Shown here: in pieces, positions 5,052 through 21,469 of the stretch
Layout: each line of letters begins with the position of its first letter
Numbering within the stretch: position 1 is the first letter of the stretch
Origin: an uncultured cyanobacterium
Lineage (GTDB): Bacteria; Cyanobacteriota; Cyanobacteriia; Leptolyngbyales; Leptolyngbyaceae
Assembly: GCA_963766075.1 (NCBI GenBank)
Contig: CAVYAN010000058.1
Coordinates: forward strand, 1 to 23,601
Length of the DNA: 23,601 nt
Direction: 5' to 3'
Translations under genes and position numbers: made by a program
Notes under the pieces: model-generated
What the model was told of the DNA's origin: nothing
Seen by the model: the letters and a program-made list of their open reading frames with translations, nothing else
Databases searched by the model: none

Positions 5052-5948
5052 TCACTTTTTGCCCAGCTTCTCCTTAGCGCGATCGCGCTCCTTGGTAATT
5101 TGCTTCACTAAATTCGACGGCAACTGGGCCTGCTTTGCCAAGGCTTGATTGAAATAGTCAACGCTGGCGGGATTTTCTTGTCTTCGTAAAATTTGGGCCT
5201 TGAGATAAAGCAGTTCCGGATTGTCCGGCACCGATTGCAAAGCCCGTTCCACCGCAGGCAGCGCCTTGGCCATTTGCTTCATTTCCAAATAGCCCATAGC
5301 AATGCCGCGATCGGCCAAATAGCGGGGTCCGGCAAATTTCTCCAACCGATTCAACCCTTGATTGGGGCTGGAAAATGGCAAATTCAGCCCAATGAACAGA
5401 TCAATATACCCTTTGATTAAATTCAGCTCCGGATCGTCCTTGGACACAGCCTGCGCCGCATCCAAGTATTTAAAGGCTTGCTGGACCTTGCCCAATACCT
5501 GGGGTGTACCCTTGACGGTTCCCTGCTCCTTGTAAATATAAACCCCTTCCAAAAATTGCCCCACCGCCAGATACAAATTGCCCCGCAGGGGATCGCTAGC
5601 CAGCAGAGCCTGCGCCGTGGTTTGCGTTTTTTGAGCATATTCTAGGAACGCTGCTGGCAGGATCGCTGCATTCTTATCGCCCTCACTAAACACAAGGGCC
5701 GCTTTCAACGCAAAGGCTAACGGTTCATTTGTCTCTGACTGCTGCAATAGTTTGCTGGCTTCCTGGTAGTTGCCCCGTTCAAAGAGTTGGACAAAGGCCG
5801 CACTGGTGCGATCGCCAATTGCCCTGGTATTCGTTGCCCGAAACGGATCCTTTGCCCACCCCGGACTGCCCCACAAACTCAAGGCCAGCACTGTCAGACC
5901 CACCACCGCCCGAGGCCGCGCCATCCGCCCAGATTGCCATCCACGCAT
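5052..5948 (-). CDS. Exported TPR-repeat protein (Sll0314/Alr1548-like)
   Basis: Signal peptide ending ...PGWA-KDPFR. Motifs DPLRGNLYLAVGQFLEG, DPELNLIKG and PDNPELLYLKAQIL. Confidence 0.8.
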   Translation of the reverse strand: MRGWQSGRMARPRAVVGLTVLALSLWGSPGWAKDPFRATNTRAIGDRTSAAFVQLFERGNYQEASKLLQQSETNEPLAFALKAALVFSEGDKNAAILPAAFLEYAQKTQTTAQALLASDPLRGNLYLAVGQFLEGVYIYKEQGTVKGTPQVLGKVQQAFKYLDAAQAVSKDDPELNLIKGYIDLFIGLNLPFSSPNQGLNRLEKFAGPRYLADRGIAMGYLEMKQMAKALPAVERALQSVPDNPELLYLKAQILRRQENPASVDYFNQALAKQAQLPSNLVKQITKERDRAKEKLGKK

Positions 5949-6138
5949 AATTCTGAATCCCCACCGCCTAAATTGAGTATCGACGAGTCGCCAAGTTGGT
6001 TAGAGTAGGAGGACTGTCATCCAGCACCCTTTTTCCACCGCCTCCTTTTCCAGCGTCTCCTTATTTTGCACGACGTTTTCCCTGACCTCAAGTTCCCATC
6101 CGGTGTGGTCAATCCAGCCCCGCTCACCTCTTTTACCC

Positions 6139-6801
6139 ATGCTCCACGTTCGCAATCTCACCTATCATCCCCCCGCCACTCCCACGGCAGTCCTGAAGGA
6201 TGTCACGCTACAAATTGCCCCCCAGCAGTTAACCCTGGTGGTCGGTCCCAGTGGCTCTGGCAAAAGTACCCTCCTGGAAATTTTGGCGGGGCTGGCCGAA
6301 AAAACTCGGGGCACCCTCTCTTGGCGCGAACAGGAACTGACCGCCCTGCATTTGCAGCAACTCAGTGGGTTAGTCTTTCAGTTCCCCGAGCGGCACTTTT
6401 GTGGCAATACCATCCTGGAAGAATTGCGGTTGGGGCATCCCGATCTGGGCAGCGATCGCATTGAGTACGCTCTCACCGAAGTGGGACTGGCGCACCTCTC
6501 CCTACAAGCCTCTCCCCAAGCCCTCAGCGGTGGTCAGCAGCGCCGTCTGGCACTGGCAGTGCAACTTATTCGTCAGCCCCATATTTTGCTCTTGGATGAA
6601 CCGACAGCGGGCCTAGATTGGTCCATGCGTCGCCAGTTGATCGCCCTCCTGGCCAAGCTCAAAACCCATTGGAGTCTGTTTGTTGTCTCCCATGATGCCG
6701 CCGAAATGGTGGATATCGCCGATCAATGTTGGACCCTGAGCCATGGCAAACTCGCGGCTGTCGCGCCCGCAGATCTAAAAGCGCGCCCGAGCAGATCTTA
6801 G
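6139..6801 (+). CDS. ABC transporter ATP-binding protein (ECF/CbiO-like)
   Basis: Walker A GPSGSGKST, Q-loop VFQFPE, signature LSGGQ, Walker B LLLDEP, H-loop VSHD. ATG at 6139 preferred. Confidence 0.9.
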   Translation: MLHVRNLTYHPPATPTAVLKDVTLQIAPQQLTLVVGPSGSGKSTLLEILAGLAEKTRGTLSWREQELTALHLQQLSGLVFQFPERHFCGNTILEELRLGHPDLGSDRIEYALTEVGLAHLSLQASPQALSGGQQRRLALAVQLIRQPHILLLDEPTAGLDWSMRRQLIALLAKLKTHWSLFVVSHDAAEMVDIADQCWTLSHGKLAAVAPADLKARPSRS

Positions 6802-7002
6802 GCATTTTAGAGCGGCATCTTAGAGGCATCGGCAGTGTGGAGGCATCGTGGCGGGGCGGAGATGCCGCGATCGCAAACCCTTGCCTGGGCCATTTTTAGC
6901 GGAAAGAACCGGGCGAGTCAACTGGGGAAAAGAGGGCACCGATGGGGCACGAAGCAGCCTACAATCGAGGCATCGTGTTGATTGTGCCCTTGGACTATTT
7001 CC

Positions 7003-7923
7003 ATGCCAGCTTTATATCCCGGATTGACTGCTTTTGACCCTGTTTTTGGCGCTGCGGCATTGCCGTTAGCCTTTCAGTTTACGTCGCCCGGACCCATCAT
7101 TTTTGACTGGGGTTGGCTGACTCTGCGCTGGTACGGGCTGCTCATTGCTTCGGCGGTACTCATTGGGGTTAACTTATCCCAGGCGCTGGCAAAACGGCGA
7201 CAGGTAGATCCAGAAGCGCTCGCGGATTTGGCCCTGTGGCTTGTGCTGGCAGCTATTCCGTCTGCCAGATTATATTATGTGCTGTTTCAATGGCGGGACT
7301 ACGCCGATCAGCCGGGAAAGATTCTCGCCATCTGGGAAGGAGGGATCGCCATCCATGGAGCCGTGATCGGTGGCTTATTGGCGAGTTTATTGTTTGCCCG
7401 CATTCGCCAAATCCCATTTTGGCAGTTGGCAGATTTAGTGGCCCCGTCGTTGATCCTGGGGCAGGCGATTGGGCGCTGGGGCAATTTTTTCAACTCCGAG
7501 GCGTTTGGCAGTCCAACCGACCTGCCCTGGAAACTGTTGATTCCGGAGACGCGGCGACCCCTTGGATCGGGGGCGATCGCCTATTACCATCCCACCTTTC
7601 TGTATGAATCGCTGTGGAACCTTGTGGTGTTTGGCATCCTGATGGGGCTATTTCGCCGCAGCATCCAACCCCATTCCCCCATCAAACGGGGCACGCTCTT
7701 TCTGGTCTATCTCGTAGGGTACGGCGCAGGGCGCGTGTGGATTGAAGGGTTACGTACCGATAGCCTGATGCTGGGCCCGTTGAAAATCGCTCAGGTTGTT
7801 AGCTTAATTGAAATGGGCGTGGGTATTGCCGGGTTGCTGTGGCTGTATGGGCGGCGGCGAGCCTTGCCGGATGTGGTTATGGGGGGGGCCAGAATCGGTG
7901 ACGCCACTGGCCCCGAACAATAA
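7003..7923 (+). CDS. lgt: Prolipoprotein diacylglyceryl transferase
   Basis: [45 protein letters not shown] and IEGLR motifs. Confidence 0.95.
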
Positions 7924-7967
7924 AGCTTTCTCAAAATATAAAAGTATAGAGAATCCAATCAAGCAAT

Positions 7968-8019
7968 AAAAAACCCTGAAGGGGTAATCCTCCAGGGTTC
8001 AATCAGGGTGCATCTACCA
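7968..8019 (-). ncRNA. NsiR1-like small RNA, copy 1
   Basis: Minus-strand core TGGTAGATGCACCCTGAT (8019-8002), then hairpin AACCCUGGAGG/CCUUCAGGGUU (its G-U pair works only on the minus strand) and a U-tract. TCCGGA lies 28 bp upstream. Confidence 0.7.
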
Positions 8020-8047
8020 CTCTATTCTTCCACGGGCATCCCGTTTT

Positions 8048-8053
8048 TCCGGA
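8048..8053 (-). promoter_or_regulatory. DIF1-like TCCGGA box (~-35) for sRNA copy 1
   Basis: TCCGGA, 17 nt, GAAGAAT, then the core. Spacing is identical in all three copies. Confidence 0.7.
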
Positions 8054-8167
8054 AGCTTTTGCAATTGGACGTGCTTTTTAAGTCAATTTCCTCCGTAGTT
8101 TTCCCGCGATCGCCTCAGTGCTGTTTAGGGCGTAAAGTCGCCGCTTATCAAAAGCCATCCAGCAATG

Positions 8168-8218
8168 AAAAAGCCCCGAAGGGTTAATCTTCGGGGCAAA
8201 ATCAGGGTGCATCTACCA
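8168..8218 (-). ncRNA. NsiR1-like small RNA, copy 2
   Basis: Identical 18-nt core (8201-8218). Perfect 9-bp hairpin GCCCCGAAG/CTTCGGGGC (8173-8197) plus U5. Confidence 0.7.
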
Positions 8219-8246
8219 CTCTATTCTTCTAAACCCATCACAATTA

Positions 8247-8252
8247 TCCGGA
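8247..8252 (-). promoter_or_regulatory. DIF1-like TCCGGA box for sRNA copy 2
   Basis: TCCGGA 28 bp upstream of the core; the intervening sequence has diverged except for GAAGAATAGAG. Confidence 0.7.
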
Positions 8253-8405
8253 CATTCTGATAGCAATCTCAAATTTTGAAGGTGTGATTCTATTCCATCC
8301 GTTATCCGTACTGACTGAATCACCCTAGGAAATCACCCTACACCCACTGATTCACGCAGAATTCACTGAACCGTCACGTCTGGCACCATCACGTATCCTG
8401 ATAAT

Positions 8406-8457
8406 AAAAAACCCTGAAGGGGTGAACCTTCAGGGCAAAATCAGGGTGCATCTACCA
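8406..8457 (-). ncRNA. NsiR1-like small RNA, copy 3
   Basis: Identical 18-nt core (8440-8457). Hairpin CCCTGAAGG/CCTTCAGGG (8412-8435) plus U6. Confidence 0.7.
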
Positions 8458-8485
8458 TTCCTTTCTTCCCGATCGCCGCCGGGGA

Positions 8486-8491
8486 TCCGGA
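8486..8491 (-). promoter_or_regulatory. DIF1-like TCCGGA box for sRNA copy 3
   Basis: TCCGGA 28 bp upstream of the core. Confidence 0.7.
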
Positions 8492-8694
8492 ACATTTGAG
8501 TGCAAACCTCAGTCCAGAAAAAATTTTCACCCAGAAATTTTTCCTAGAGGTTGGGTGACAGGCTCGGTCAGCAAGACAGTAACTCGATTCTCAAAACTCT
8601 GGAATCGCACAGTGGGGAAAACCCTGCCCCAAGACCTGTTGGCCGGGTCCGAATCTGCGCTAGGGTAAGGAGTGACTTTCTGTGGGTGGAATGT

Positions 8695-9801
8695 GTGGTG
8701 CTGCTGAGCCGTTCTAGGATTGCCCTATTCCTGCTGGCCAATGTGCTCTTGGCCAGTTGTGCCAATACGCCCTTGGGACAATCGCTGCAAAAATCCTTGG
8801 AGGCAGATCCCAAACTGCAATCCAGCCCCTTGGCGACCCCCATGGCGACGAGTATTACCCCATCGCCGCCGGTGGCGAGCAGTCCCACGCCCACCCCCTC
8901 CGCCGTTGGAGCCATGCCGCCGGACGCCGCACCCAGCGGAGTGGTCCAGAGCCCTGCTGTCCCAGGCTCTATAGATCGCGTCAAACCCTTTAGCGATCGC
9001 CTCTCCCTCGGATTATCAGGCGACTCCCTGGGCCTTCAGTCCGCCACCCCCACGGCCCTAGCCCCGTCCACCGTTGCCTTCACCGATCTAGAGAAAACGC
9101 CCCAACCGCTGCGACAGTACGTCTCCGAGGTGCTGCAACTGGGCGTGTTGACCTTTTCTCCGGCAGCAGTGGCCAAGGGAAATTCTGCTCCCAAGGCTGC
9201 TGACCCCAGCCCTGCTCCCAATCCTGAGCTGACTAAATTTGAGCCTAATAAAATTGTTACCCGCCGCGACTATGCCCGCTGGTTGTTCGCTGTCAACAAT
9301 CACCTCCATGCCGATACCCCCGTCCAGCAGGTGCGGCTAGGCTTGGAAACCTCCCAGCCTGCTTTTCAGGATGTGCCCCGCACCGATCCAGACTTCCCCG
9401 TTATCCAAGGACTTGCCGAAGCCGGATTGCTCCCCAGTCCCTTGTCTGGCGATAGCACAACAGTCGTATTTCGCCCCAATCAACCCCTAACCCGCGAACA
9501 TCTACTGCTGTGGAAAGTGCCAATGGATACGCGACAAGCGTTGCCCTTAGCCACCCTGGAAGCTGTGACCCAAACCTGGGGCTTCCAGGATACCGCACGG
9601 ATTGATCCCAAGGCGCTGCGGGCTGTACTCGCCGATTTTCAAAATGGTGATTTGTCCAATATTCGGCGCGTCTTTGGCTATACGACGCTGCTACAGCCCA
9701 AAAAACCCGTCACCCGAGCCGAAGCTGTCGCCGCGCTTTGGTATTTTGGCTTTCAGGGCGAGGGGCGATCGGCCCAGGCTGCCCTTGCCAAGCCGAATTA
9801 G
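8695..9801 (+). CDS. S-layer homology (SLH) domain lipoprotein
   Basis: GTG start at 8695 or 8698 gives a signal peptide with lipobox LLASC, then a Pro/Ser/Thr linker. SLH-type motifs FEPNKIVTRRDY, FQDVP, FRPNQPLTRE and PKKPVTRAE. Confidence 0.85.
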   Translation: MVLLSRSRIALFLLANVLLASCANTPLGQSLQKSLEADPKLQSSPLATPMATSITPSPPVASSPTPTPSAVGAMPPDAAPSGVVQSPAVPGSIDRVKPFSDRLSLGLSGDSLGLQSATPTALAPSTVAFTDLEKTPQPLRQYVSEVLQLGVLTFSPAAVAKGNSAPKAADPSPAPNPELTKFEPNKIVTRRDYARWLFAVNNHLHADTPVQQVRLGLETSQPAFQDVPRTDPDFPVIQGLAEAGLLPSPLSGDSTTVVFRPNQPLTREHLLLWKVPMDTRQALPLATLEAVTQTWGFQDTARIDPKALRAVLADFQNGDLSNIRRVFGYTTLLQPKKPVTRAEAVAALWYFGFQGEGRSAQAALAKPN

Positions 9802-15446: not shown

Positions 15447-15591
15447 TGCCCAAGTTACCTAGCCTTGGCCTCGGCCCACTTAGCCCACTTAAGATTTTTC
15501 CTTCTGGCTCAGCTCAGCCAATTAAAGTCGTTATACAACCTTGTTAATTCCTCCGAAAATGCTTAGTTTAGTTTTTCATGAGTTATTAAGC

Positions 15592-16143
15592 TTACTGCAT
15601 TAAATTTCCCCACCAACCAAGCAAAGGATGGTCCTTACCTGGCATATATTTTCCTTTAGTTCGTATAGATCCAAGTACAGCGCGTAATTCGGTTAAAGTA
15701 AGATTTCCGGCTTCTGACCAATTCTTAATTATTTCTAAAGTTGATAAAACCTGTAAATCAGGTGCTTCTTTTTGAGACAATGAAATCGCTTTTTTGTCGT
15801 CAGTGGCAACTGCCCACCCTCGATGAATTGCAATGGAAAAAGTTGCAGATTCCCCGTCATCGCCTAGTTCAAAAGCATAGTTTACAAACGTCTCTTCCTC
15901 CGCTTCTGACTCGAAATCCACTACTGAAAGCAAATCCTGTGCAATGGCTGTCTCAAACTGAACTGCGCCTTCATTCTCCTCATTTTGGAGGCGTTGAAGC
16001 GTTAGCAGTTCTTTCTCTCTCACGACTTCAGTCACTACAACTTGAGCAGGGATTGACTTCAAAATTGCAATGAAATGCCCCGAAGCACAGAAGTTAAGGA
16101 CACAACAAGCGTCAAGAACAACATGGGAGTGTCTAATTTGCAT
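15592..16143 (-). CDS. PIN-domain protein (putative ribonuclease toxin)
   Basis: PIN acidic residues in VVLDAC, V..VVREKEL, LGDDGESAT and ATDDKKA. GGGAGA RBS, 19 bp after the upstream gene. Confidence 0.8.
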   Translation of the reverse strand: MQIRHSHVVLDACCVLNFCASGHFIAILKSIPAQVVVTEVVREKELLTLQRLQNEENEGAVQFETAIAQDLLSVVDFESEAEEETFVNYAFELGDDGESATFSIAIHRGWAVATDDKKAISLSQKEAPDLQVLSTLEIIKNWSEAGNLTLTELRAVLGSIRTKGKYMPGKDHPLLGWWGNLMQ

Positions 16144-16162
16144 AACTGATCTCCCTGTTTTC

Positions 16163-17356
16163 CTATGCTTGACGCAAATCTAAATGAGCAGTTTCTTCCA
16201 TGATTCCACTTGAATGTTCACGCAATGCCTCTGCAATGCGTCGAGCTTCCAAGCGGTCAACACCAAGGAAATCTGCAAATCGTCCTTCAGTGATGAGTCC
16301 CTGATCTAAAGCCTCAATTGCCAAGTGTTGATAGTGAGTGGGTACTACGTCAGTGCGCTGTTGAATGTCTTCTAAGCCTAGCTCCTGCTGTACTTTCCTT
16401 ACTTTCAATCCGCGATCTCGTAATCGATCTCCAGTGCCAGAGGGTAAAAGCCCCATTTCTTCTAAGCGATAAATTAGGGCTTCTATCGATACTCCGTAGT
16501 AGTGGGCAAGAGTAAACAAATTAGTTGGCGTGAACTTGCCGTGAGTGCGATGCATATCATTGAATCGTCTGAGCAGACCACTTGAAGGCATTAAGAAATA
16601 TTTTGGAAACGCCTCAGCTAAACGCTCACTTTCTGGGATTCTTTGGTATTGCCCCTCGAAGTCAAATACAGGCTTTCGTCGATGGGCAAGAAAATGAAGG
16701 TATCCATGCGCCATTGACCAGCGCCGTCGTTCTTCATAGTGGTCTAAGTTAATAGCCATGCAGCCACCAAGCTGCTCATCATAGCTATAAATTTCTGAGT
16801 ACTTTGCTGGCATTTTCAGATAGAAAATTCGGATGCCTACACTTTGTTCCAAGATGTCTCGCAGGAGTGGAATCGGACCATCGCCCAGTCCAATCCTTTG
16901 ACGTTCGGCGATCGCGATACTTTCTGCGGCAGCCTCTATCGGCATACTGGTCACGTCATACTCTTGAGGATAGTTTCGAGGAAGTGGAGCATCCACAATC
17001 TTCTCAAGTTCTAGATAATTTCGACATAACTCCTCTAAACGCTGAATGATCGGGTCAATTCGTGCTTCCTCTTGTTCACTCCGCTGATAAGCAGCGCGAA
17101 ATTGAACGGCGAAAGGTTCAATCACAGGGCTAGGGCGAACAAAGTCACTAATGGCTCGCCCGTAGGCGCGAGCCAGTTTAATCAACTCATTTGGCTTCAG
17201 ACGGCGTTCGCCTTTCTCAATCGCGACGATGGTAGTTCGGGCAGCATCAATAACCTTAGCGGCATCCGCCTGAGTCATCCCACACTTCTTACGCGCCTGT
17301 TGCAGCAGATCCCCTAGATTACGTAGATCAATATTGTCCAGAATATTGGTAGCCAT
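16163..17356 (-). CDS. XRE-family HTH fused to ImmA/IrrE (M78) metallopeptidase domain; HEXXH altered to HGYLH
   Basis: HTH ARKKCGMTQADAA...RTTIVAIEKGER. M78 features AAESIAIAERQRIGLG, RRRWSMAHGYLH, ERLAEAFPKYFLMP and LAHYYGVSIEALIYRL. Confidence 0.9.
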   Translation of the reverse strand: MATNILDNIDLRNLGDLLQQARKKCGMTQADAAKVIDAARTTIVAIEKGERRLKPNELIKLARAYGRAISDFVRPSPVIEPFAVQFRAAYQRSEQEEARIDPIIQRLEELCRNYLELEKIVDAPLPRNYPQEYDVTSMPIEAAAESIAIAERQRIGLGDGPIPLLRDILEQSVGIRIFYLKMPAKYSEIYSYDEQLGGCMAINLDHYEERRRWSMAHGYLHFLAHRRKPVFDFEGQYQRIPESERLAEAFPKYFLMPSSGLLRRFNDMHRTHGKFTPTNLFTLAHYYGVSIEALIYRLEEMGLLPSGTGDRLRDRGLKVRKVQQELGLEDIQQRTDVVPTHYQHLAIEALDQGLITEGRFADFLGVDRLEARRIAEALREHSSGIMEETAHLDLRQA

Positions 17357-17399
17357 AGCATTTCCCCTTCAGCCTTACTGAACAGCAATCAGATAATCA

Positions 17400-18815
17400 T
17401 CAGATGTTTGCCGATTGCTTATTTGATTCAAGAGATCTACTGAGATGTGCAGATTCTACAGCATCCCACTCAGTAACATAAGCTTGATAAAGACGAATCA
17501 AATGTTTCTGCATATCAGCAGGCAGTAGAATTTCTGCCATAGCCGTTCGATCCACAATGTCGTCCAGATCTGGAAATCTTCGGGTTAAAGATTCCCATTG
17601 GAGATTAAGGTTGTCTGAGACATTTAATAAATCTCTAAGAGTAGAAACTTGCGCCAGCATATGTCGCAGATACAAACTAGTGTCTCCTGCTGGCTTTCTA
17701 CCATGGGGAACTATGTATGGAGTTTTGTCTTCCATCTCTAAGGCAGCAAGCGCCTGCTTCCTCAAAATACAAGAAGAACAATACCCACACTGGATGGGTT
17801 GCTGTCGATGTGGACTATCGCATGACATCGTTAGCGGTGGCAGGTCATTTCTCTTATCTTCAGCTAATGGTTTACACATTTCCGCTTTAGTCCAGAAAAG
17901 GAAAGGGTTTTGTACTTTGAATTCCTCTCCTAAAAGCTCTGAAATGATATCACTTATTCTTAGCAAGGTTAATGGATGAACTGAGCGAGAATGATCAAGC
18001 CCTATGGCAGACTTACGGTATGGAAGATTGATTGCACCAATACCATTTTCGTACAAGTAAAGAATTCTTTGTCCCATTAAGTACGCACAGGCTGCACCCA
18101 ATAGCATAAATACAATGCCTCGCGCACGCGAGATTTTGTTCTTTTGATGCAGGCTACTCTCGGAGAAGCGAATTGGAACTCGACAAAGGTTCAAACGGTT
18201 AGGAAAAGAGGATTGAAATGCTTGGAATACTTGTTCCTGACGAGCAAGGGTGTTTTCATTGCTGCCTGTTCCAAATAGCATGAACGATACTTCATTACTT
18301 GTTTTAAGGCGGCTATAAAGCCCCGCAAGCGCATCAAGTCCCCCACTCCATAGTGTTACCTCCCCCACATAAGGATCTGCCGATGAAAGAAGAGGTTGCT
18401 GCTCAACAAAACGTCCTGAGTCAAGCCTCTTATGAAAATCGAACAACCATCGACTTCCGGTAGCCCACTCAAGCAAATTAGAAAGCTTATCTTGAAAGGA
18501 GGTCAGATTTAGTAATTCTGGATGACGTACTGGAAGAAATACACAAATGCGAGTCTGTTCTTGTCGCAGGCTTTGGAAAGTAAGACGATCAGTGGCATGA
18601 ATAGCAACAGCAAGATCAATCAGATCAGCAATGATTGATGGAAACTCTTGTTGTACCCGACATCCAAACCCACTGTCATCTATAGCAATGCCTATGTTGC
18701 TTTCCTTACCTCTGGAATGATCAATACAGCGAACATTCCCATTACTATTCATTATAGGGTCAAAAAACAAGGTGTAATTTCTGTCGTATGTGTCATGCTT
18801 TTTCATAATATTCAA
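17400..18815 (-). CDS. QueC-like (7-cyano-7-deazaguanine synthase fold) protein of the QatC/Cap9 defence-associated type
   Basis: PP-loop LWSGGLDA, YENGIGAINLP...SRSVHP, NPFLFWTKAEM, Zn site SC-x9-CGYCSSC..R, and N-terminal extension DLIDLAVAIHATDR. TTG start overlaps the upstream TGA; alternative ATG at 18806. Confidence 0.87.
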   Translation of the reverse strand: MNIMKKHDTYDRNYTLFFDPIMNSNGNVRCIDHSRGKESNIGIAIDDSGFGCRVQQEFPSIIADLIDLAVAIHATDRLTFQSLRQEQTRICVFLPVRHPELLNLTSFQDKLSNLLEWATGSRWLFDFHKRLDSGRFVEQQPLLSSADPYVGEVTLWSGGLDALAGLYSRLKTSNEVSFMLFGTGSNENTLARQEQVFQAFQSSFPNRLNLCRVPIRFSESSLHQKNKISRARGIVFMLLGAACAYLMGQRILYLYENGIGAINLPYRKSAIGLDHSRSVHPLTLLRISDIISELLGEEFKVQNPFLFWTKAEMCKPLAEDKRNDLPPLTMSCDSPHRQQPIQCGYCSSCILRKQALAALEMEDKTPYIVPHGRKPAGDTSLYLRHMLAQVSTLRDLLNVSDNLNLQWESLTRRFPDLDDIVDRTAMAEILLPADMQKHLIRLYQAYVTEWDAVESAHLSRSLESNKQSANI

Positions 18816-19444
18816 CCTGCTAAGAGATCCTCGTCTAGATCTATTGCCTTCCGTGAAGAACGCCTAGGTAGAGACAATTTAGCTACACTTTGTTTATTAA
18901 TCGCATCTTTAGCAAATTTACTAATACCATCCTTTATATTTGACTCCATTTCCTTAATGCGCCCTGAAAGAGTTGCTTGATCAATACCAGCATAATGCTC
19001 AGAAGTGAGTGGAACGCGTTCCTTAAATTCTGATTCATATACTTCATTCATATAACGCTGTAGCATCACAACTGAAATATTGCCAACATCTAGTTCTTGA
19101 CCATATCTCAAATCGCAAATAACACTCTTACCAGCACGAAGGGCAAGCTCTTTGAGATCTGGTCGTCCATCAGATTGCTGCACCAGCCTATCAAACTCCA
19201 TGCTCAAGGAAGTGTAGTCTTTTGCTCCAAGCTCATCGCTTGCAGTAATAAATTGAGCAACAATATCTGCCATCCCTTGACAAAGTCTGATAGGAAGATC
19301 GCCTTTTTGGATCAGGTCTTTTTTAAGGGACTCCAACACAGTCCGAGCACATTCATCGCTGGTGGCTTTTCCCTCGCAAAGCCATTTGTATGGCTTCTGG
19401 TAAAGCCTTCTGAGCCTGTTATGAACAATATCTCCATCGGGCAT
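18812..19444 (-). CDS. Hypothetical protein, probably helical; occupies the qatB-like position directly upstream of the QueC-like gene
   Basis: 210-aa ORF with GGAGGT RBS 6 nt before the ATG, adjacent promoter, and stop overlapping or abutting the QueC-like start. Confidence 0.82.
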   Translation of the reverse strand: MPDGDIVHNRLRRLYQKPYKWLCEGKATSDECARTVLESLKKDLIQKGDLPIRLCQGMADIVAQFITASDELGAKDYTSLSMEFDRLVQQSDGRPDLKELALRAGKSVICDLRYGQELDVGNISVVMLQRYMNEVYESEFKERVPLTSEHYAGIDQATLSGRIKEMESNIKDGISKFAKDAINKQSVAKLSLPRRSSRKAIDLDEDLLAG

Positions 19445-19482
19445 AGCAGCACCTCCGTCGGTCGGAGTTTGTTTCTACTATT

Positions 19483-19544
19483 AAGGTAGCCCTTAGATCT
19501 GACATTGTCAATGTTTAACATTTATTTTTTGCGAGAAATGTCAA
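19483..19544 (-). promoter_or_regulatory. Sigma70 promoter of the island operon with overlapping palindromic operator-like sites
   Basis: TTGACA (19511-19506), 17 nt, TACCTT (19488-19483); a second TTGACA at 19544-19539. Palindromes TGACA-T-TGTCA, ACATTG-T-CAATGT and AATGTT-T-AACATT at 19500-19522. Confidence 0.7.
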
Positions 19545-19752
19545 CTCAGTGACGTTGATACAAACTTAGACTGCTTCTACTGAGGGTGTTGTAGGCTTGA
19601 GGATCGTTTTTCTAAGAATTTTGCATTCGTGCATGGTTTGAACAGGCTATAACAACGCCCATAACCACAATCTCCTAGAGGTGATTGGGTTATGGCAGAG
19701 GCTATCCGCAGCAGACGATAGGCACCGTTCTCTTAGGCTCCCAGCCTTCTAA

Positions 19753-19786
19753 GCTTGCTCCCTTCTACTTTACTCAGGGAGCAAGC
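19753..19786 (-). terminator. Stem-loop downstream of the restored CocE stop (possible terminator)
   Basis: Perfect 11-bp inverted repeat GCTTGCTCCCT/AGGGAGCAAGC with a 12-nt loop; weak U-tract. Confidence 0.4.
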
Positions 19787-19818
19787 CCGGTCGGTAGAAA
19801 TCCTGTATGGCAAGCCCC

Positions 19819-21469
19819 TTAGGGATCCTCTTGCAGTAGGGGCAAGACAATCTGAGAGGGGTATGCGGCACCGCTCTGGAGGCTAATGGTGATGACACGT
19901 TGATCGATCTGGCGACTCGTGGCGGGGAAAGTGCCATCTCCGGCATTGATGGGATAGGCGGGGAAGCAGGCGGCACTGATGCTGAGCCGGAGGGCGTCCC
20001 CCGCCGCAATTTGGACGCAGGTTGGTTGTAGGCTGATCTGTCTTGGTTAGGCTGATCTGGCTTGAGGGAGACGTGCCGGATTCAAACCGACCATAGCCCT
20101 GGGTGATGTTGATCACGCTACCGGTGGGTGTCACCCTGGACAGCACCGCACAGAGATCAAAGCTAGGCGCATCAATCCCTGGGGCCGTGGCGGAGCAGTA
20201 GAGGTCAGCCCGGACCTCCCCCGCAATGTGAAGGGTTTGGGGCAGGGGCTCGGTGGTGTAGGTGAGAATATCAGTGCGGCAGTCGAGGCTGGCGCGATCG
20301 CAGGGACCAGTGGGCACAGCGGCATGCCCTCCCAGCACGGGCACGGGCCGCCACGGATCATGAACCAGCCGATCCGTTGCCTCAGGAATTGGGGCTTGGG
20401 GGTGGAGGATGAGTTTGCCGTCTTCATCCCGCAGGGCCGCCAGTCCAGTGCTGGCCAAGTAGAACGGCGTTGGCGTGCTCGGGATCCAGGTGTCAACCTG
20501 ACGCCACTGATTGCGACCCATTTCAAACAGCTGAAGCGGTGCAGCGGCCAGCAAGCCCGTGTCTATGCCTTTGAGGAACTGGTCGAACCAGCGAATTTGC
20601 AGGCGATCGCAGGGCGTGGCGGCTTCTGGGCCAAAGTCGATTGTCCCCACTTTGCGGCCCCAGGGCAGGTGGGCCCACGGCCCAATGATCAGATGCTGGG
20701 GCTGGGTGCTGCGAGCGGCCATGGCTTGATACAAATGCAGGGTGCCGCGCAGAAAGCTGTCGTACCAACCGCCAATGTGCAGCATCGGTAAATCAACAGC
20801 GGCAAAGTGGTTCTTGGGAGAGCAGGCTTGCCAATAGGCGTCGGGGTGGGGGTGATTGAGCCAGTCGTGGTAGAAGGAATCGGAATCGAGAGTTTCGAGC
20901 AGGGGCGATCGCGCCGGGATCGCGGTGCCAAAGTCCAGCCTTTGAGCAGCATTGGCCAAGGCCAAATAAGCCGTTTCATCGCCGCGCCGCCGCAACGTTT
21001 CTGCCGAGAGTTGCAGGGCCCAACTGAGATTGGCTTGCAGACAAAAGGCTCCGCCTTCGTAGGCCCAGTCGGTATAGAGATCGTAGCCAATCATTGCGGG
21101 ACAAATCGTGATCAAGGCCGGTGGCTGGGCGATCGCCGCATACAACTGAGTCATGCCCTGATAGGAAAATCCATACATGCCCACGCGACCTGTGCTGCCG
21201 GGAAGCCCCGCCGCCCACTGCACAGTGTCATAGCCATCGGCAATTTCGGCCTCAAACAGGTGGAAATTGCCCGCCGAGGTGCCCCGCCCCCGGACATCTT
21301 GAATCACTACAATATAGCCCTGGGCGGCGTACCAAGCGGGATGGGCATACACCACCGTGGAGGCGATCGCCCGTCCATAGGGCTGCCGCATCAGCAATAC
21401 AGGATACTCGCCGCCGTCTGCCGGACGATACACATCTGCATCTAAGCGCACGCCATCCCGCGTCTGCAT
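19819..21469 (-). pseudogene. CocE/NonD family serine hydrolase, frameshifted near 20041
   Basis: TRDGVRLDAD, RQPYG, QDVRGRG, nucleophile GFSYQG, GGWYD and IGPWAH. After the shift the typical tail LQPTCVQIAAGDALRLSISAACFPAYPINAG... continues to TAA at 19821-19819. Confidence 0.85.

Follow-up and report, generated by a model that had tools for sequence, protein, structure and literature searches.

A 23,601-nucleotide stretch from an uncultured member of the Leptolyngbyaceae (GenBank assembly GCA_963766075.1, contig CAVYAN010000058.1; here called the window) contains four consecutive genes, one of which encodes a protein resembling the QueC-family enzyme QatC of the Qat defence system. Is this locus a variant of a described system, and how might its four products act together? 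We find that the genes form one conserved, mobile operon. The operon is real, widespread and apparently undescribed so far; it probably works like a QatBC core but fails Qat membership, having a partner from a new family and a repressor/PIN switch of its own. The genes, named G1 to G4, are read on the minus strand and all coordinates are window positions.

18812..19444, minus strand: G1, 210 amino acids; uncharacterised all-helical protein with the N-terminus M-[P/A/S/T]-D-G-D, the predicted partner or substrate of G2.
17400..18803, minus strand: G2, 467 amino acids from ATG; long QatC-like QueC-family PP-loop enzyme with a four-Cys Zn site.
16163..17356, minus strand: G3, 397 amino acids; XRE-HTH domain fused to an M78 (ImmA/IrrE, COG2856) domain, predicted autorepressor and antitoxin.
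15592..16143, minus strand: G4, 183 amino acids; DUF3368/COG2405-type PIN-domain protein, predicted RNase toxin.

An earlier note, made from the letters of this DNA, described four co-oriented, tightly spaced genes behind one promoter in an AT-rich, HIP1-poor island. All four are confirmed as minus-strand open reading frames (ORFs), and the gaps of 43 bp between G2 and G3 and 19 bp between G3 and G4 are correct. The reported 4-bp overlap of G1 and G2 holds for an alternative G2 start (TTG 18815, giving 471 residues) and not for the ATG start, which is used by the Drouetiella copy and leaves an 8-bp gap. The compositional description also stands: the GC content of the island (15451-19700) is 0.435 versus 0.535 genome-wide, and it contains one HIP1 site versus 5.8 expected. 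The single promoter is backed by -35 and -10 boxes and an operator that are conserved upstream of the cassette. The host assembly contains one copy each of G1, G2, G3 and G4. A flanking glyoxalase-like gene was considered as a further member and ruled out: it is convergent, its GC content is host-like, and the DNA match of relatives ends at the cassette.

The proposal that the four-gene order recurs is borne out in cyanobacteria, alphaproteobacterial plasmids and metagenomes. G1 has a match in 16 of 401 cyanobacterial genomes, the host included; among the other 15, the cassette is complete and in order in 12 (one with a frameshift in G1), split over two contig ends in one, and internally deleted in two. 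It is complete in all three loci of the genome_contigs set, while the 30 nearest relatives include two with the whole cassette and one deletion form. Metagenomes were scanned with 20 distant G1 sequences, and some of the resulting loci are near-duplicates. The order G1-G2-G3-G4 is violated in none of these 48 loci: half of them (24) contain the whole cassette, and the remaining 24 stop 0-196 bp from a contig end. A plasmid search with G2 returned 125 records, mostly QatABCD. The 16 examined comprise eight Qat loci, two other contexts and six alphaproteobacterial four-gene loci (Bosea, Roseomonas, Agrobacterium, Methylocystis, Labrenzia and R. rhizogenes). The third genes of these six match the G3 profile (E 1e-63 to 1e-78), as do five annotated fourth genes that of G4 (1e-9 to 1e-15); the sixth is an unannotated open frame. 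A second plasmid search, which used an alphaproteobacterial G4 as query and so avoided bias towards G1-G2, returned 26 records; five new ones were examined, of which four are four-gene loci and one (L154) contains G4 only. The complete cassette is found in 10 of the 11 alphaproteobacterial plasmid loci of four-gene type examined. Its mobility is indicated by patchy distribution, different flanks in unrelated hosts and low GC content. Viral contigs yielded no relative with G2 or with the distant G1 alignment.

Some loci have lost half of the operon. G4 has a match in 28 of the same 401 cyanobacterial genomes. We inspected 11 of the 12 genomes with G4 but not G1 (G166, E 2e-4, was left out) and a second site in G356. 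Of these 12 stretches, nine have an intact G3 before G4 and no QueC, with G4 broken in two of the nine, and three are fragments. On a quick G3 tree, eight stand-alone and seven partly deleted copies are interspersed with full cassettes, implying eight changes for the former and six for the latter; the starred branches force at least five each. G1-G2 has thus been lost repeatedly while G3-G4 keeps its promoter. No intact G1-G2 without G3-G4 was seen where the contig reached far enough. This asymmetry is suggestive and not proof of addiction, because G1-G2 also presents a larger target to deletions.

By its sequence, G2 is QatC-like but neither QatC nor a housekeeping QueC. It matches Pfam QueC (E 7e-9) and the PADLOC QatC model (E 7e-43), and its nearest solved relatives are QatC chains (PDB 9zee, E 2.5e-22; 9vlk, E 4.5e-22). 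Against the NCBIfam QatC model NF041925 it scores 155.6 bits and does not reach the curated cut-off of 280. The motifs are SGGLDA at 153-158, RARG at 226, ENG at 252, HP at 276-277, NP..TK at 299-306, and cysteines C328, C339, C342 and C345. The QatC-type set that had been recognized in G2 is present, and G2 has most of the cluster 2 (QatC) list defined in PMC13329287: D60, RxRxxxF at 226-232, E252-x-G, HP, P(x)4TK and CGxCxxC. G2 varies on this list in its SGGLDA P-loop, in GSRW for GDRW, and in a Cys spacer of 10 rather than 19. It reads S-R-S-V-H-P where QatC reads T-R-T-T-H-P, with S272 and S274 aligning by sequence with T278 and T280 of QatC. The Tyr/Asp pair by which QueC and Cap9 bind 7-carboxy-7-deazaguanine (CDG) is not evident in the G2 segment LDHSRSVHP.

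A quick tree of 39 proteins, including 28 QueCs from four-gene cassettes, seven QatC and the two housekeeping QueC of the host, agrees with this placement. The 28 cluster together across very distant hosts (Shimodaira-Hasegawa-like approximate likelihood ratio, SH-aLRT, 89; branch not starred), separate from the seven QatC, which have a branch of their own (support 97). The phylogenetic check suggested in the earlier note therefore places G2 apart from both the housekeeping QueC and the Qat branch. A housekeeping identity was rejected on other grounds as well: G2 scores 16.2 bits against TIGR00364 versus a cut-off of 150.3 and has neither the expected length of about 220 residues nor the YxQxH, VPxRN and YPDC motifs. 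The host encodes two separate QueC above the cut-off, far from G2 in the tree. It also carries queD-like genes, and the presence of these together with two QueC makes a supply of CDG possible.

Two observations concern G2 relatives elsewhere. In alphaproteobacterial copies (e.g. L095, 4779-6176), S[D/E/N]G.DS replaces SGGxDS, ESG replaces ENG, and a (Y)EDYRNHP segment resembles the canonical QueC YPDCR; as read from this segment, these copies may keep the CDG-binding Tyr/Asp that cyanobacterial copies lack. On a Mesorhizobium plasmid (L098, 905-6517), a QueC-like gene lies between genes for a CHAT protein and a 229-residue protein starting MGSV on one side and an ASCH gene on the other, and on a Natrinema plasmid (L099, 3582-5915) a haloarchaeal QueC-like gene lies behind two small acidic genes. 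Both QueC-like proteins form long branches outside the Qat and four-gene branches.

G1 has no match in Pfam, NCBIfam, PADLOC or PDB sequences, including the QatB models of PADLOC and NCBIfam. Sequence and profile comparison with the PDB gave weak helical-repeat matches and nothing else, and an Atlas search gave no usable match. A word search gave 213 relatives and clustering at 50% gave 388 representatives, one distant relative being labelled Chloroflexota. The predicted model (pLDDT 93.2) has seven helices and a flexible stretch at residues 1-10. With this model, Foldseek found no match at E<=0.001; the best VIA match is a generic helical bundle (Z 8.4 over 68 residues), and no QatB chain is in the VIA top 50, where the QatB family is possibly unlisted. 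These searches do not establish a novel fold, nor do they set G1 apart from QatB. The alphaproteobacterial first genes escape the G1 hidden Markov model and are detected by profile-profile comparison only, which identifies them as homologous to G1 (probability 81.9, E 1e-5, 180 columns); they mostly start M-S-D-G-P.

Conservation of G1 peaks at its extreme N-terminus. In a sample of 110 sequences, biased by gene-caller starts and by the profile used, 105 start with methionine, a small residue and aspartate, and four with M-D-x-D. Residue 2 varies (P 87, A 14, D 4, S 3, T 1, E 1), D3 is invariant (110/110), and D5 is kept in at least 90%. By the general rule that the initiator methionine is removed before small residues and kept before aspartate, both start forms would put a free amine one residue before D3. 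The rule for small residues is also cited in PMC13279940. This N-terminal pattern would be that expected of an N-terminal acceptor. At the other end (window 18812-18860), G1 has a conserved extended tail, I-D-L-D-E-D-L-L, echoed by L-D-E-G/D in the alphaproteobacterial family; it is a candidate partner-binding motif.

The description of G3 as an HTH-ImmA/IrrE protein holds for its domains, which match HTH_3 (E 1e-14) and Peptidase_M78 (E 1e-22), and not for an intact peptidase motif: the HExxH of the window copy reads H217-G-Y-L-H221, with a glutamate, E188, on the preceding strand. In PADLOC its best match is RmrA (E 1.5e-24), followed by capP (E 1e-10) and capH (E 1.5e-8). Among 54 G3 copies, the motif begins HG in 28, HD in 12 and HE in 14, and HG or HD is the state of most non-alphaproteobacterial copies. 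The preceding-strand glutamate is present in 28/28 HG copies and in 0/26 others, a pattern that suggests migration of the catalytic acid from the HExxH helix to that strand; the copies are related, and independent events are few. The HTH recognition-helix motif RTT..(A/S)(I/M)E(K/R)G is kept in 52 of the 54.

G4 itself has no Pfam or PADLOC match, and nothing useful was found in NCBIfam, nor anything among PDB sequences with its profile. Its identification as a PIN protein is upheld by homologues, which support assignment to the PIN family, DUF3368 type. The Atlas clusters nearest the 86%-identical Drouetiella copy carry DUF3368 on 29-42% of members (scores 0.97-0.98), and the homologue at locus L152 scores above the Pfam PIN cut-off (27.5 vs 23.6). 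At least 90% of 25 aligned copies keep D11, E98 and D115. An hhalign comparison with a four-sequence PIN alignment did no better than shuffles, the alignment being too shallow to inform. In PADLOC, alphaproteobacterial copies match PDC-S70 and nothing else (E 1e-8 to 1e-10 at best).

The two points that the earlier note lacks are the missing catalytic HExxH glutamate of the window peptidase and a conserved operator, which accompanies the following upstream features.

19483..19511, minus strand: predicted sigma-70 promoter, TTGACA (19511-19506), 17 bp, TACCTT (19488-19483), with the operator over the -35 box.
19500-19510, minus strand: palindromic operator TGACAATGTCA, one half formed by the -35 box; consensus TGACA-N-TGTCA.
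19539..19544, minus strand: second operator half-site, TTGACA in the window but mostly CTGACA in relatives, where it lies about 30 bp before the -35 box.

Seventy-five upstream regions were located by start pattern, of which 49 are distinct. The palindrome occurs with at most one mismatch in 40 of the 49 (1000 shuffles: mean 0.38, max 3), and at least two half-sites occur in 46 (shuffles: mean 0.3, max 4). TGT[CT] follows TTGACA in 35/44 cases versus 0.9% of host TTGACA sites, and TAnnnT lies at 16-18 bp in 41/49 versus 3.0% in the host. A plain sigma-70 scan gave nothing above chance and did not list the conserved cassette promoter, because its -10 box TACCTT matches 3/6. Like the HTH recognition-helix motif, the operator motif is common to cyanobacterial, metagenomic and alphaproteobacterial copies. 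In six of nine loci without G2 the 220 nt before G3 contain the operator, at times in degenerate form; since it stays before G3 when G1-G2 is deleted, G3 is likely an autorepressor. Four other perfect TGACANTGTCA palindromes are present in the host genome (C10:55969, C41:44175, C72:186676 and C101:41713).

On this basis, we assign a probability of about 0.5 to an inducible anti-phage operon in which a QatBC-like core and a self-sufficient G3/G4 repressor-antitoxin/PIN pair form two predicted arms, in parallel under one switch. G3 would bind the operator, hold the whole operon repressed and act as antitoxin to the PIN protein G4. It would be inactivated via its M78 domain on phage infection or DNA damage, as for IrrE/DdrO or ImmA/ImmR, and the loss of repression would release both G4 and the G1-G2 core. 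G1 would then bind G2 and offer its alpha-amine one residue before D3, G2 would couple an ATP-activated small acid to this N-terminus, and G4 would cut RNA and arrest the cell. G1-G2 may itself act as an effector arm, because G3-G4 survive alone and QatBC alone defends (PMC13279940).

Genomic context gives moderate support to a defence role. Flanking ORFs were scanned at 17 cyanobacterial loci (96 of 103) and 16 metagenome loci (90 of 102), after syntenic duplicates and ORFs cut by locus ends were dropped. Among the neighbours in metagenomes are McrBC, GmrSD with Panacea, YhcG, helicases of SNF2 type, an integrase accompanied by an antirepressor, and an HTH/M78 pair distinct from that of the cassette. 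In six of eight annotated alphaproteobacterial loci, defence or toxin-antitoxin genes lie within 5 kb of the cassette (Shedu, AbiE, AbiJ, Lit, restriction nucleases, dGTPase and VapBC). Cyanobacterial flanks are mostly housekeeping, with a few PIN, DUF488, Uma2 or DUF29 genes.

Several findings weigh against the parallel-arm operon. Toxin-antitoxin or nuclease neighbours occur at only a few of the 17 cyanobacterial loci and nowhere in the window, and the count of six in eight alphaproteobacterial loci has no background control. In G2, DA (SGGLDA) stands in place of DS at the end of the P-loop in 117 of 120 close homologues. G1 does not detectably resemble QatB in sequence: all seven QatB sequences compared start MGTS, while glycine is at position 2 in none of the 110 G1 homologues; profile-profile comparison with the seven QatB gives a probability of 1.6 for G1 and 0.2 for the alphaproteobacterial G1; and the flexible tail is about 12 residues in the model versus 30-90 in QatB. 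With no QatB profile similarity and no N-terminal glycine, the initial view of G1 as a QatB-like deazaguanylation substrate is not supported. One alphaproteobacterial G1 copy starts M-R-D-G, which breaks the N-terminal register. G3 proteolysis is uncertain because the HExxH glutamate is missing in 28 of 54 copies, and L154, where G4 stands with no G3 match within 5 kb, misfits a strictly toxic G4. Finally, the substrate of QatC is itself disputed, with no activity on CDG in PMC13376578 and an NDG peptide in PMC13639016.

The same parts might instead be wired in series: G2 would modify G1 on infection, modified G1 would trigger the M78 domain of G3, and G4 would be the sole effector, causing abortive infection. 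We regard this relay as possible rather than probable. It accords with the failure to see G1-G2 without G3-G4 where the contig reached far enough, with the clustering of the four-gene QueCs (28 rows, SH-aLRT 89) across very distant hosts, and with the lack of a catalytic-looking fold match for G1. It is countered by the intact persistence of G3-G4 without G1-G2, through repeated losses on the G3 tree, and by QatBC requiring no separate effector (PMC13279940); shared repression equally explains the dependence of G1-G2 on G3. The original proposal that the QueC pair senses and the PIN protein executes is weakened by these first two points, and is kept as this rival.

A bolder and equally tentative version would make the locus a third class of QueC-based immunity. 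Here a sister of QatC would conjugate an activated acid to the non-glycine, mostly proline, N-terminus of G1, and the modified carrier would trip G3 and release the PIN RNase, the catalytic glutamate of G3 having moved in many cyanobacteria from the HExxH helix to the neighbouring strand. If true, it would be the first link of QueC protein conjugation to a readable output outside the cyclic-oligonucleotide-based antiphage signalling system (CBASS).

It is rather unlikely that the operon is a selfish or stress module with no role against phage, in which G3-G4 would be an addictive toxin-antitoxin pair and G1-G2 its cargo, induced by stress and consisting, for instance, of two enzymes that modify a protein or metabolite. 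The mostly housekeeping cyanobacterial flanks would fit, as would the frequent decay of G1-G2 while G3-G4 is kept and the control of DNA-damage responses by M78/XRE pairs (PMC2701414). However, the closest characterised relatives of G2 are defence proteins, and defence neighbours occur at the six of eight annotated alphaproteobacterial loci. Defence genes, too, are typically lost repeatedly and distributed patchily. Least probable is that G2 adenylates a G1 carboxylate (D3 or D5) or acts on nucleic acid, the alpha-amine not being the acceptor: the constancy of D3 (110/110) and D5 (at least 90%) beside a variable residue 2, the varied acids activated by PP-loop enzymes (PMC13376578) and the lack of an evident CDG-binding pair would allow it, but the near-fixed distance from N-terminus to D3 better fits an amine acceptor and both characterised defence QueCs use the N-terminal loop of their partner.

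Further observations concern neighbouring DNA. At L152, a block of HD-domain, AAA ATPase, 3'-5' exonuclease and radical SAM genes (5715-9500, minus strand) adjoins the cassette and is possibly another conflict system. At L093 (1373-4089) and L101 (1356-4093), on the minus strand, three hypothetical genes diverge from the cassette promoter; those of L093 have no Pfam match. In the window, a CocE/NonD-type (Peptidase_S15 and PepX_C) hydrolase ORF at 19883-21469 (minus strand) is apparently frameshifted near 20030: its PepX_C match ends at residue 462 of 528, and LRLSISAACFPAYP continues in another frame. It appears to be a pseudogene or an assembly error. An intergenic sequence of about 50-60 bp at about 19740-19800, just beyond the island, has 82-89% matches on eight other host contigs and is a small repeated element.

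How, then, does the operon compare with known systems? The check for an already named system found no match to the cassette in PADLOC 2.0 (2023 release) or NCBIfam. No description was found in the literature searched, as judged by titles, abstract openings and passages; this literature did not include most subscription papers or the bioRxiv supplements, and the operon may already be listed without a name among tabulated predictions. In the supplement of PMC13329287, PF06114 is absent and PF01850 and PF01381 are given only for clusters 10 and 4.

The G3-G4 half has close parallels. HTH-COG2856 (DUF955/M78) proteins with COG2405 (DUF3368) PIN proteins are predicted toxin-antitoxin modules (PMC2701414, PMC5499597), and DUF3368/COG2405 proteins are listed as PIN toxins of HTH-DUF955 three-component systems (PMC5499597). 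The architecture of G3-G4 is identical, with the M78 fusion directly upstream of the PIN gene, and the pair also occurs alone; it differs in being nested in a four-gene QueC operon and in the HExxH of the window copy, which is not intact. The accessible parts of PMC2701414 and PMC5499597 mention no link of such modules to QueC. RosmerTA, which has an M78 antitoxin, is defensive (10.1101/2022.05.11.491447). RosmerTA and CapH/CapP share XRE-HTH and M78 peptidase domains in defence, but in the cassette HTH and peptidase are fused and the cargo is a QueC pair, not CBASS. RosmerTA membership was rejected, as G4 gives no RmrT match. With this operon it can also be tested whether an HTH-M78/PIN pair serves as the switch of a defence operon.

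For the G1-G2 half, type IV CBASS shares a QueC-family enzyme in a predicted defence operon. Its Cap9, however, is about 185 residues long with canonical QueC motifs (PMC13279940, PMC13329287), in contrast to the 467 residues of G2, and the cassette lacks a CD-NTase, the Cap10 protein resembling tRNA-guanine transglycosylase (TGT) and an N-terminal glycine acceptor. Membership was rejected, as no CD-NTase, Cap10 TGT or short Cap9 is among the four genes or scanned flanks. The absence of QatA, QatD, CD-NTase, TGT and queDEF that had been pointed out is confirmed, none being annotated or matched beside the cassette in the window or scanned flanks.

The closest system is QatABCD, with its QatBC core, which alone defends and requires the N-terminus of the partner (PMC13279940). 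Shared features are a long QueC with an N-terminal extension, RxRxxxF, ExG, HP, P(x)4TK and the four-Cys site, and a tightly coupled upstream all-helical partner of about 200-290 residues with a conserved extreme N-terminus. The cassette differs in carrying the HTH-M78/PIN pair and operator instead of QatA and QatD, in a G1 with no detectable QatB homology, no MGTS and a short tail, and in a G2 with the P-loop SGGLDA (S[D/E/N]G.DS in Alphaproteobacteria) on a separate branch. Neither the KAP NTPase QatA nor the TatD protein QatD is found in the window; among the 186 flanking ORFs scanned there is no TatD and a single KAP_NTPase match (L002, E 8e-7, 1.5 kb downstream of the cassette). QatABCD membership was rejected on the sub-cut-off QatC score, the separate clade, and the lack of QatB homology, the MGTS glycine and QatA/QatD. 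What QatC-type enzymes attach and how phage is stopped are open in three structure papers of 2026. For these questions the operon is useful as an independent lineage of QatC-like enzymes: the partner protein is unrelated and has a non-glycine N-terminus, deletion variants exist in nature, the operator is defined, and a candidate toxin could serve as read-out. Should the arms act in parallel, the operon would still extend protein modification by the QueC family to a setting other than Qat and CBASS.

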